In this document: in pieces, positions 52,217 to 54,769 of the stretch
How the letters are laid out: each line of letters opens with the position of its first letter
Numbering within the stretch: position 1 is the first letter of the stretch
Assembly: GCA_964365185.1 (NCBI GenBank)
Contig: CAYIOP010000005.1
Span: 1 to 54,769, forward strand
Length of the DNA stretch: 54,769 bases
Direction of reading: 5' to 3'
DNA from: an uncultured Candidatus Saccharibacteria bacterium
Lineage (GTDB): Bacteria; Patescibacteriota; Minisyncoccia; UBA6257; 2-01-FULL-56-20
Position numbers and translations under genes: made by a program
Notes under the pieces: generated by a model
The model's database searches: none
What the model was told of the DNA's origin: nothing
Seen by the model: only the letters and a program-made list of their open reading frames with translations

Positions 52217-52639
52217 ATGAATCCAGAGGAAATTAAATTAAGTCCTAAAAGCGAAGAATTTAATGCCAATATCGAAAAAATGAAAGGCAAGATATGGATT
52301 GAGATGAGCCGGAATGATCATGAAAGTATTGGAAGTTCTTTTGGAAAAGAGTTGGATGGGGATACAGGTTTAGATAAAAATATGAAATCACTTGAAGAGA
52401 GAATGACAGAGAGTCCAGATAAATCCGTCGGAAAATTAATGACCGATGAAGAAATTGATGAGTATCTAAACCATTTTGTTTCAGGTCTAAAAAGCGCGGA
52501 GGAAGATTTAAAGAATTCTAAAAACCGAGACGCATCTTTAAAAACACTAGAGGAGGTCAAGATAGAATACAGGAAGATTTTGGATTATTTAAGGAAGATT
52601 GGAAAATTGCCAAAAGCATACGAGGCGCGGGAAAACTGA
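52217..52639 (+). CDS. Hypothetical protein
   Basis: E/K-rich helical ORF; TATGAT just before ATG. Confidence 0.65.
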   Translation: MNPEEIKLSPKSEEFNANIEKMKGKIWIEMSRNDHESIGSSFGKELDGDTGLDKNMKSLEERMTESPDKSVGKLMTDEEIDEYLNHFVSGLKSAEEDLKNSKNRDASLKTLEEVKIEYRKILDYLRKIGKLPKAYEAREN

Positions 52640-52665
52640 TTTTCCTTGTGGAGAGAATTTTTACG

Positions 52666-52878
52666 CTATTTAAAATTCTCTTCTTGAAGATGGGATTGCC
52701 TTAAAATTGATTTAAAAGTTCCAAACGGGATTTCTTTTCGATTGGCTGGAATGATGACTGTCAAAGTGGTAATCCCAAATTTCCTAAATTTAACATGACT
52801 GCCTTTTTGCGAGATAAAAACGAAGCCGCTTTTTTCTAGGATTCTTCTTGTTTTGTCGGATGAATAAAGTTTAGGCAT
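52666..52878 (-). CDS. hicA: HicA-family toxin
   Basis: GFVFISQKGSHVKF..IPFGTFKSILRQ. Confidence 0.9.
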   Translation of the reverse strand: MPKLYSSDKTRRILEKSGFVFISQKGSHVKFRKFGITTLTVIIPANRKEIPFGTFKSILRQSHLQEENFK

Positions 52879-53089
52879 ACTGCAACCGTTCAGAGGAAAC
52901 AGTTGGCTTTTCTATTTTGGGCAGATTTTTAGGAGAAAAATCTTCAAAGTAAAGTTCAAGAGCTTCGCGGAGGTTTTTTAGAGATTCGGCGCGGGTTTTG
53001 CCGAAACTAGAAATATCGACATTCAAACACTGGGAAACAAAATATTTACCTTCTTTCCAAGTGATGATTTTAAGATTGGTTTTAGCCAT
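52871..53089 (-). CDS. hicB: HicB-family antitoxin (short form)
   Basis: SSFGKTRAESLKNLREALELYFED; 8-nt overlap with hicA. Confidence 0.88.
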   Translation of the reverse strand: MAKTNLKIITWKEGKYFVSQCLNVDISSFGKTRAESLKNLREALELYFEDFSPKNLPKIEKPTVSSERLQYA

Positions 53090-53165
53090 AACTTAATTCT
53101 ATATTATATTATTGGATTAGTTTTATCAAATAATGCTAGTGAGGCCGGAAAATATGGGGTTTTGG

Positions 53166-53225
53166 TCCCTCACCCTTTTATTAAAGGGTGAGGGATTGAC
53201 AGATTAGGAGTTTGTATGCTATAAT
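53166..53225 (+). promoter_or_regulatory. Consensus sigma70 promoter of the DGR target, preceded by a 13-bp hairpin
   Basis: TCCCTCACCCTTT-TATT-AAAGGGTGAGGGA (53166-53195); TTGACA 53196-53201; 18-nt spacer ending TGC; TATAAT 53220-53225. Confidence 0.8.
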
Positions 53226-53266
53226 TAAAGAGATAGATAGTTCTTTTGTATTAAAATACTTACTGG

Positions 53267-53385
53267 TTTTTGCCGTGGCACTTAGAGCATCTATTTAATC
53301 AGGTACTTTAAATGCTGCGGCAAAAAAGAGACCAAACAGAACGCAATGACGCGTTTGTTTAAATCCCTGCGGCAAAGGAGTTTTT
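53267..53385 (+). promoter_or_regulatory. Structured 5' leader of the DGR target with alternative SD-occluding pairing
   Basis: TTTGCCGTGG can pair with CTGCGGCAAA at 53315-53324 or at 53367-53376, which runs into the AAGGAG SD. Confidence 0.55.
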
Positions 53386-54012
53386 ATGTCTGGCATTTCA
53401 GTGGATCAGAGATTCGCGATGCTTGCGAAAATCGGCGAAAACATCGATTGGAACTCGCTCACAGTTGAGCAAGTTCAAGTTGGTGTCGTGGATGCGCAGA
53501 GAGCTGGAAAAGAAGCAACGGCTTTTATCCGAAATGGGTTTCGGGTTCAGGTCGGCGATTTCTTCTTGAACACCGGAGAACTCACAATCCCAATTCCGGC
53601 GCTTGCTCGTTTGAGCCTTGAGGAAATCCAGAAGAGATTTCGCGACATCAAAGGGATAGAGCGTGATACCTCGCCGACAGAAGTCGTAACCCTAAACCTC
53701 GCCACCATTCTTCGTTCTGACGAAGAAAGGGTGAATGGAGAGGAATACGAGCGACGGATAGCGTCGAAACTTGAAATTCTTTTTGGTCCCCAACAAGCTA
53801 TTTGGCTGATGGAGCACCAGGACGAATTCCCAGCTCTCATGGCCCTTCTTGGAAAAATCTATATTGATTTTTCAGGAATGGTCGTGGTGGGCGAGGATGG
53901 TGGCCGGGACGTGTTTTGTCTCAATCGGCTCGGCAAGCGTTGGGACCTCGGTAGGGATTGGGTTAGCGGTGACTTCGGTCGGGGTGGCCGTCTCGCTCTC
54001 TCTAGTAAGTAG
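53386..54012 (+). CDS. DGR target protein with C-terminal variable region (putative CLec-like)
   Basis: 3' end is homologous to the TR with adenine-specific differences; ends W..DF..RLALSSK. Confidence 0.9.
   Translation: MSGISVDQRFAMLAKIGENIDWNSLTVEQVQVGVVDAQRAGKEATAFIRNGFRVQVGDFFLNTGELTIPIPALARLSLEEIQKRFRDIKGIERDTSPTEVVTLNLATILRSDEERVNGEEYERRIASKLEILFGPQQAIWLMEHQDEFPALMALLGKIYIDFSGMVVVGEDGGRDVFCLNRLGKRWDLGRDWVSGDFGRGGRLALSSK
53882..54008 (+). repeat. DGR variable repeat (VR)
   Basis: 127-nt ungapped match to 54328-54454 with 18 mismatches, 17 opposite TR adenines. Confidence 0.95.
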
Positions 54013-54327
54013 CAGTACTTTGATTCTTGTGGCTTTGGGTTTTCGCCCTTAGTCACTTGGACCCTTGGGATATTTTCCTTAGGGTCTTTTTTTTGATACT
54101 TTAATATTGGATAGTAGATTTTACGTCCGCGGCTACGGTTTCGGGCGGTCGAATTCCGCGATAGCATCAGTCAGAATAAGAGCGGGTACGCTTTCTCTTA
54201 GCGCGCGGTGCTATTCGCTTTATATTGCTGCTACTTAGTATGAAGATCTAGGGAATTAAAGATTCCGAATAAGATTCAACTCCAAGAATATTTCAAGGAG
54301 TGGTGGTTTAGGCGGGTTTTCATACAT

Positions 54328-54454
54328 TCGTGGTGGACGAGGATGGTAACCGGAACGTGTTTTATCTCAATCAGAACGGTAAGCGTTGGGACCTCAATAG
54401 GAATTGGGTTAGCAATGACTTCAATCGGAATGGCCGTCTCGCTCTCTCTAGTAA
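54328..54454 (+). ncRNA. DGR template repeat (TR)
   Basis: AAY-rich copy of the VR reading VVDEDGNRNVFYLNQNGKRWDLNRNWVSNDFNRNGRLALSS. Confidence 0.93.
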
Positions 54455-54483
54455 CTGGCGGCAATAAAGGAAATGTTCGGCGG

Positions 54484-54769
54484 CTAATTGTGGCTTGTGA
54501 TTTGTCTAAGCCAACCGCCGAGCATTCTTCCGACTTCATTTAATTGCTCGGAAATTAAAATGTATTTTTTGGTGTCGAACGATTTAATTTCCCAAGCGAT
54601 TTGAAGAAAAAATTTAGCAAGATCAATTTTTGTGGCCGCGCGTTCTATGTATGGTATTTTTTTGTTTTTTTCCAGGAAGCTGGCTATAAATATCGCTTCA
54701 ATGGCATCGATTAGCGTAGAATCTATTTTCGCGCCGAGCGTGTAGCGGGCGTCTCTTAAGATATGGGGC
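54484..54769 (-). CDS. avd: Avd-like four-helix-bundle DGR accessory protein (5' end outside the window)
   Basis: Manual translation from 54768: PHILRDARYTLGAKID..KIDLAKFFLQIAWEIK..KKY..NEVGRMLGGWLRQITSHN-stop. Confidence 0.88.
   Translation of the reverse strand, partial: PHILRDARYTLGAKIDSTLIDAIEAIFIASFLEKNKKIPYIERAATKIDLAKFFLQIAWEIKSFDTKKYILISEQLNEVGRMLGGWLRQITSHN

Follow-up and report, generated by a model that had tools for sequence, protein, structure and literature searches.

The stretch of DNA analysed here, called the window in what follows, is 54,769 nucleotides (nt) long and makes up one entire contig (C5; CAYIOP010000005.1) of the 832 kb, 14-contig genome of an uncultured Candidatus Saccharibacteria bacterium. 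Near one end it carries the variable-protein gene of a diversity-generating retroelement (DGR), preceded by the structured leader that is the subject of this report (Table 1). The variable repeat (VR) in the gene and the template repeat (TR) downstream of it differ at 18 of 125 positions, and 17 of these 18 mismatches fall at TR adenines, which identifies the gene as a genuine DGR target, as a preliminary description of this DNA had supposed. Structure prediction models residues 57-208 of the protein confidently, with a predicted local distance difference test score (pLDDT) around 90. The top structural matches of this model are C-type-lectin-fold chains, among them Mtd and TvpA, both variable proteins of DGRs, at weak Z scores of 5.1-3.9; Foldseek alone returned no match to the model at E <= 0.001. 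By this comparison, residues 57-208 are C-type-lectin-like.

The promoter in front of the gene matches the sigma-70 consensus throughout and places the predicted transcription start near 53232, leaving a leader of ~155 nt before the ATG. Within this leader, TTTTTGCCGTGGCACTTAGAG (53267-53287) is complementary to CTTTAAATGCTGCGGCAAAAA (53306-53326) along a stretch of 21 positions that includes several G-U pairs and a single C/A mismatch, and belongs to a long irregular hairpin, P1, whose 3' strand includes the near-invariant GCUGCGGC (53314-53321). A second hairpin, P2, pairs AAACAGAACGC (53335-53345) with GCGTTTGTTT (53352-53361); in most homologues its apical hairpin is CGC-AUGGU-GCG. The 10-mer CTGCGGCAAA is found at 53315-53324 and again at 53367-53376, where the second copy runs into the Shine-Dalgarno sequence (SD). 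It occurs 3 times in the window versus 0.17 expected, a number reached by none of 100 shuffles. The tail core at 53367-53373 both repeats the P1 3' arm and is complementary to it. Taken as a whole, the leader folds at -46.7 kcal/mol compared to -34.7 +/- 3.7 kcal/mol for shuffled sequences (z = -3.24), and none of 200 shuffles is as good. The preliminary description had given the leader this length, had drawn both hairpins and had noted the second exact copy running into AAGGAG. All of this is borne out, the hairpins with the support of covariation, and the repeated element beside the SD is kept upstream of homologous targets.

Table 1 Features of the leader, the target gene and the template repeat (all coordinates are those of the window)
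Feature	Coordinates	Strand	Details
Sigma-70 promoter	53196..53225	+	TTGACA-18-TATAAT; 12/12 match; upstream TG extension
Leader 5' segment	53232..53266	+	GUUCUUUUGU (53240-53249) is part of the conserved 5'-proximal motif
P1, long irregular hairpin	53267..53326	+	5' strand 53267-53290; 3' strand 53303-53326
Purine-rich P1/P2 junction	53327..53334	+	AGAGACC, then AAAC opening P2; columns almost invariant
P2 hairpin	53335..53361	+	AAACAGAACGC / AAUGAC loop / GCGUUUGUUU
Conserved single-stranded tail	53361..53374	+	UAAAUCC-CUGCGGC-A; adjoins SD
SD and start codon	53375..53388	+	AAGGAG 53375-53380; ATG 53386-53388
DGR variable-protein gene	53386..54012	+	208 aa; VR 53884-54008 inside
Template repeat (TR) of DGR	54330..54454	+	18 mismatches to VR, 17 at TR adenines

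Near-consensus promoters lie at the same relative position in most of 38 homologous leaders. Just past the predicted transcription start these leaders also share a conserved 5'-proximal motif, with the variants GUUCUUUG, GUACUUUGAAA and GCACUUUGA, often with ACUUG. The motif could act at the 5' end of the RNA or as a site in DNA. It also occurs in weak leader variants that have P1 only, and pairing with the SD does not account for it. On the other side of the promoter, a perfect palindromic hairpin (CCCTCACCC...GGGTGAGGG, 53166-53195) adjoins the -35 box, and the genome has further copies resembling it at C3:44723-44749 (93%) and C8:5622-5657 (81%).

A conserved, covarying, strand-specific RNA

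Comparison with homologues shows that the leader forms an RNA structure on one strand, whose helices covary and whose unpaired elements beside the SD are near-invariant. Leaders for comparison were gathered from 24 protein-family loci in species genomes and from 14 metagenome loci, the latter obtained by searching with an N-terminal alignment of 6 closer homologues, and a covariance model (R1) was built from an alignment of 21 leaders. In 30 distinct sequences that were aligned to the covariance model, and hence fitted to it, P1 and P2 pair in 86.8% of cells versus 35-43% when partners are slid, and 21 of the 31 pairs are changed on both sides versus 10.0 +/- 1.7 in shuffles; none of 500 shuffles reaches any of the five measures used. 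The same picture is obtained with an independent MAFFT alignment and RNAalifold, where 17 of 27 pairs are compensatory. P1 contributes 23 pairs, 16 of them with changes on both sides, and is paired in 89.5% of cells. The inner helix of P2 is 88.2% paired with compensatory changes in 3 of its 4 pairs, and pair 178-211 extends the outer stem. This amounts to an aptamer-like secondary structure backed by covariation; an all-against-all scan of columns gave no consistent extra covarying pairs, pseudoknots or tertiary pairs beyond P1 and P2.

Conservation of sequence follows a pattern of its own. In the consensus, P1 has the 5' arm UUYGCC-NYR-GC...UUAGG and the near-invariant 3' arm ...GCUGCGGC-RAA, followed by the junction AGACCAAAC, P2, GUUCAAAUCC-CCGCGGC-A and the SD. 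Three of these elements are almost invariant, namely the core of the 3' arm, the junction and the tail AAAUCC-CCGCGGCA, and their conservation exceeds what pairing would need.

The structure is read on one strand. The window scores 25.5 bits in antisense compared to 95.8 bits in sense, the antisense matches being weak echoes of the P1 hairpin. Alignments also show that the length of the P1 loop differs widely among homologues, which fits a hairpin and would not be tolerated by a spaced DNA site. Together with the many conserved G-U pairs and the strand asymmetry, this points to an RNA of the + strand rather than a site in DNA. It has been considered that the leader could instead be a DNA operator, in which a transcription factor would occupy the inverted repeats together with a GTTCTTTGAAA-like motif where transcription starts. 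Its quasi-palindromic cores (GCCGnGGC, CCGCGG) and start-proximal motif could indeed be protein sites, but with arm spacing that is very different among homologues, with compensatory changes along 23 pairs and with many G-U pairs, each of them an A/C mismatch in the opposite strand, an operator is hardly credible.

Target-gene homologues in relatives share the leader architecture. R1 has a single sense match in the genome of the window. Copies turn up in 19 of 125 genomes from the same family and in 6 of 151 from an order-wide sample; a phylum-wide sample adds 150 other genomes and no copy. All loci together yield 38 distinct sense matches, 27 of which score at least 60 bits. Of these strong copies, 26 stand directly upstream of a target-gene homologue, although in one case (L061) the frame of the homologue is interrupted; the sole exception (L086) precedes a 53-codon open reading frame (ORF) with no similarity to the target gene. 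In the case of L054, also a strong copy, the homologue downstream differs in its N-terminus. At the family loci of species genomes, R1 detects the leader upstream of 15 of 24 and not at the other 9, and at the locus L023 the leader of a second target gene is short and unstructured. The leader family is thus specific to one DGR-diversified, C-type-lectin-like gene family in small-genome Patescibacteria (Parcubacteria/Paceibacteria-type metagenome-assembled genomes). A pattern scan of viral contigs picked out 84 further stretches; none of the 80 loci fetched matched the covariance model, so these stretches are chance matches.

A scan of 52600-54769 against Rfam 15 at E <= 10 gave only sub-threshold chance matches. 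The best match to the leader was Phe_leader, at 19.1 bits versus a cut-off of 55, and a suhB match (24.9 versus 41) fell on the terminator at 54028-54101. Full-text literature searches turned up no leader RNA described for DGR targets, which supports the view of the preliminary description that no equivalent is known for such targets. The nearest described items are the RT-1 to RT-19 motifs near reverse-transcriptase genes, such as RT-10, which in phage BPP-1 is located between the TR and the gene for the reverse transcriptase (PMC5737381). The supplements of that paper list the RT motifs and could in principle contain a similar element, although those families are in Rfam and none matched 52600-54769 at E <= 10.

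Like the RT motifs and the TR-containing DGR RNA, the leader is a conserved structured RNA within a DGR cassette. Unlike them, it is part of the target mRNA, about 500 nt upstream of the VR, whereas they flank the TR or the reverse-transcriptase gene and have a proposed role in reverse transcription. The leader might nevertheless belong to the DGR machinery, for example by marking the target or its transcript for the complex of reverse transcriptase, Avd and TR-RNA. This would suit the exclusive linkage of strong matches to DGR target genes, as well as a short CUACUUG-like element common to the leader and the conserved RNA upstream of the TR. Elements for target recognition in DGRs are reportedly at the 3' end of the VR, however, and the leader, which ends at 53385, lies neither there nor at a flank of the TR. 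Nor does it accompany all related targets, given the 9 family loci where it is undetected and the second target at L023. Finally, in a reported reconstituted DGR, target transcription had only a mild effect on retrohoming (PMC12875486). A part in the machinery is on balance scarcely plausible.

Alternative pairings and access to the Shine-Dalgarno sequence

The preliminary description had proposed a two-state switch, in which the P1 5' arm would alternate between the 3' arm, leaving the SD free (State A), and the SD-overlapping copy of CTGCGGCAAA, masking the SD (State B). In the window, State B joins U53267-G53275 with C53370-G53378 over 9 base pairs (bp). This duplex is unusually good (-14.8 kcal/mol; z = -4.2 versus shuffled tails), and the repeat of the 10-mer is non-random. 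In many homologues the tail and SD resemble the 3' arm and junction, and in L040 inspection of the sequence shows that the tail and the 5' arm are almost perfectly complementary. Against this, enforcing State B costs +12.5 kcal/mol relative to the free ensemble of the window, for a predicted fraction of 1.6e-9, and the median cost in homologues is +12.7 kcal/mol (30 rows, 29 informative; L091 has no State B pairs). State B pairs 72.7% of cells compared to 71.2% in shuffles and 46-57% in slid controls, and it shows no covariation, with 33 of 500 and 129 of 500 shuffles as good. The P1 pair 11-153 is CG in 12 sequences and UA in 11, the 5'-arm C/U switching in step with the 3'-arm G/A, whereas the State B pair 11-230 is unpaired in 14 of 29, since the tail A after GGC is almost invariant and stays fixed while its 5'-arm partner switches. 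The free State B duplex beats shuffled tails in just 5 of 36 leaders (mean z -0.38), making the window an outlier, and in ensemble folds of 24 leaders the 5' arm acts as SD partner at <=0.12 in every one. The cost, the missing covariation and the 5 of 36 leaders indicate that State B is a feature of the window sequence, made possible by the quasi-palindromic core, and not a conserved design. A switch of this kind is most improbable, and as drawn it fails on the refuting condition named in the preliminary description itself, a State B that is negligible and lacks conservation.

The accessible SD of State A did not survive either. In the predicted minimum-energy fold of the window, the SD is paired with GUUCUUUUGU (53240-53249) near the 5' end. 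A closing helix between the 5' segment and the SD was considered as a family feature and rejected, with a mean z of -0.19 and 2 of 38 leaders at p <= 0.05 versus shuffled U-rich 5' segments. Ensemble folds of the same 24 leaders predict heterogeneous SD partners. In view of these two results, SD occlusion is treated here as a property of the window and not of the family. The occlusion does not behave as an RNA thermometer, since in the nearest-neighbour model, applied to the window, the SD-unpaired fraction stays at 0.6-2.0e-3 from 10 to 45 C.

An attenuator was a further suggestion of the preliminary description. Like leader-peptide attenuators such as Phe_leader, the leader has a long hairpin followed by a second hairpin. 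Unlike them, it scores far below the Phe_leader cut-off, has no intrinsic terminator on the + strand between 53232 and 53385, and has no conserved upstream ORF: 5 of 27 leaders are without an upstream ATG ORF of at least 10 codons, and the recurrent leader AUG is that of the P2 loop, whose reading frame, judged from AUG and tail positions, differs between homologues. With neither a terminator on this strand nor a conserved leader peptide, the attenuator reading was set aside. Pairing of the AUGGU of the P2 loop with the start-codon context was also dropped, as by eye the loop varies and the window has no match. The same goes for pairing in trans between the leader and the RNA upstream of the TR, for which RNAduplex over the whole lengths produced only meaningless end-to-end duplexes. 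What remains of the proposed control of the hypervariable protein is that the leader of its gene is structured, is not random and probably influences expression; the State B switch and the attenuator do not remain.

A third pairing is better conserved. In State C, the tail CCGCGGC is complementary to the 3'-arm core GCUGCGG, the tail core mimicking the 5' arm. State C pairs 93.7% of cells versus 30-61% with slid partners, and as a duplex it does better than shuffled tails in 18 of 36 leaders (mean z -1.63). For example, the 3'-arm residue C148 is paired within P1 in 16 of 29 sequences and mismatched there in 13, but pairs with G225 of the tail in 26. Natural variants of the tail are transitions (G/A, C/U) that keep State C, with 146-227 paired in 27 of 29 and 147-226 in 29 of 29, while the same variants break State B, leaving 14-227 unpaired in 9 of 29. 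The only double change is found in L040, where U148 faces A225 and the 5'-arm partner is also A. From these sequence patterns, the contact between tail and 3' arm appears to be the best-conserved candidate for an alternative state.

Possible roles of the leader

Our best explanation, held tentatively and falling a little short of probable, is that the leader is a conserved structured 5' RNA without a match in Rfam 15, through which a trans-acting factor exerts gene-specific post-transcriptional control. The transcript predicted from the near-consensus promoter folds into the very stable P1 and P2, with the conserved unpaired junctions and the SD-adjoining tail following. Such a leader would work post-transcriptionally in cis, through mRNA stability and/or the initiation of translation. 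Left to itself, the RNA should stay in the P1/P2 fold. Rearrangements are about 12 kcal/mol uphill and thus possible only with help, so that any regulation must come from a factor in trans. This factor, which could be a protein, an RNA or a ligand, would read the 3' arm, which is near-invariant, along with the junctions and the tail, and the alternative contact would be that of the tail with the 3' arm (GCUGCGG with CCGCGGC) rather than that of the 5' arm with the second copy and the SD.

Several points weigh against this explanation. The transcription start, the RNA ends and the abundance of the RNA are all predicted, and the trans-acting factor is hypothetical. In the window the 5' segment is predicted to occlude the SD strongly (SD-free fraction 3e-4), but across homologues the occlusion does not go beyond that in shuffles. 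State C is itself uphill, with a median cost of +12.3 kcal/mol that makes it as costly as State B; the lowest costs are those of L069 (+0.7) and L049 (+2.6), and only these come close. Covariation cannot confirm State C, since the 3' arm hardly varies (1 compensatory cell). When State C is enforced, the mean predicted accessibility of the SD moves from 0.45 (P1) to 0.56, with 11 of 26 leaders up, 6 down and 9 unchanged. Both candidate alternatives, States B and C, lie about 12 kcal/mol uphill, and no consistent change in predicted SD access comes with either.

The main rival is a constitutive role in stabilisation or tuning. In this case the hairpins would simply protect the mRNA from 5'-end-dependent decay and hold translation of the transcript from a very strong promoter at a fixed low rate, with no switching at all. 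P1 and P2 dominate the predicted ensemble, with alternatives that cost about 12 kcal/mol; near-consensus promoters are present at most loci; and the predicted SD-unpaired fraction of the window holds near 1e-3 over the whole temperature range. However, a passive stabiliser has no need of near-invariant unpaired junctions, nor of an invariant 3' arm with an often mismatched partner and a complementary, conserved tail. This role is unlikely, if still to be taken seriously.

Comparison with known regulatory leaders is useful here. Like translational riboswitches and SD-occluding leaders of the preQ1 and SAM-II type, the leader is a structured 5' untranslated region; its helices covary, its junctions are conserved and it ends at the SD, for which pairing is predicted in the window. 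A new class of metabolite- or ion-sensing riboswitch would fit its size of about 125 nt, its highly conserved junction nucleotides and its position directly before the SD. Unlike translational riboswitches, however, it serves one gene family and its ligand is only hypothetical; its alternative helices are about 12 kcal/mol uphill, and predicted access to the SD is not consistently changed by them. No described class is matched, as no Rfam 15 family comes near its gathering score in 52600-54769, and in place of a metabolic or transport theme, 26 of the 27 strong copies precede one family of DGR variable proteins. With a narrow taxonomic range and no clean, mutually exclusive expression platform to be seen among the predicted helices, a riboswitch is very unlikely. 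Alternatively, the leader can be compared to the autoregulatory leaders of ribosomal-protein operons. Here too the structure is conserved, gene-specific and limited to one gene family, as in protein-binding autoregulation, and the conserved unpaired elements would suit recognition by a protein. The difference is that the downstream gene encodes a hypervariable, C-type-lectin-like protein rather than an RNA-binding one, and the binding protein is only hypothetical.

A more specific form of trans control is a dedicated riboregulator, in which the leader would gate translation of the hypervariable protein through a DGR-linked or cellular factor that binds the 3' arm, junctions and tail and drives the exchange between tail and 3' arm. 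Candidates for this factor could include, for example, Avd, the reverse transcriptase, a TR-linked RNA or the variable protein itself. This form is doubtful. If it were true, expression of new variants would be coupled to diversification, and the leader would represent the first class of regulatory RNA tied to DGR targets. Work on DGRs has dealt almost entirely with mutation of the target, and control over expression of the diversified protein is essentially unexplored. A conserved, covarying RNA of ~125-160 nt between a near-perfect promoter and the SD suggests that this control may be tight and post-transcriptional. The leader is in any case a candidate for a new RNA family, with an alignment and a covariance model that can be extended to metagenomes, and it is a compact, testable RNA.

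Divergent leaders and neighbouring features

Weaker leaders with a P1-like hairpin (33-49 bits) were also found before other genes, at L107:1501-2275, at L094 (minus strand, 835-1625), and in L108, L095 and L093. The idea that such weak, P1-only matches are a general mark of DGR targets was rejected. The L108 leader precedes a distant homologue of the target family (hhalign 83%). Those of L107 and L094 precede a different protein of 214-222 aa with a C-terminus rich in G, W and R; these proteins have no detectable homology to the target family, and their assemblies yielded no TR copy. L094 contains a 132-nt direct repeat of 77% identity (2-133 and 1364-1495 in gene orientation). This was considered as a VR/TR pair and rejected, as it duplicates the 3' end of the upstream gene together with the promoter and the start-proximal motif. 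In one genome (G148, C1:53353-54628; L092 and L051), two divergent leaders of 45-49 bits stand in tandem about 1.1 kb apart. The first precedes an ORF of ~224 aa (a 247-codon open frame) without similarity to the target, and the second a target homologue.

On the far side of the target promoter, two genes divergent from it lie within 52666-53089 on the minus strand. One is HicA-toxin-like (PF07927, E 1.5e-14); the other, upstream of it, is small and DUF7387-like, a sub-threshold assignment, and looks like the HicA partner. At the other end, a bAvd-like gene (54484-54768, minus strand) is on the strand opposite to the TR, converges on it and runs off the end of the contig. The sole RVT_1 gene of the genome is on another contig (C3, 114675-115286), where the fetched locus ends at 115601, possibly the end of that contig. 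The DGR cassette is thus apparently split by the assembly, and its gene order is unusual.

Between the terminator of the target gene and the TR, the region 54108-54330 is strongly conserved, structured and non-coding, and a promoter-like site at 54093-54120 belongs to it. It had no Rfam match at E <= 10. DNA identity in this region is 67-79% across 18 other loci, and RNAalifold on 12 sequences gives 59 pairs, 35 of them with compensatory changes. In the template RNA of the DGR, this region probably makes up the 5' domain.

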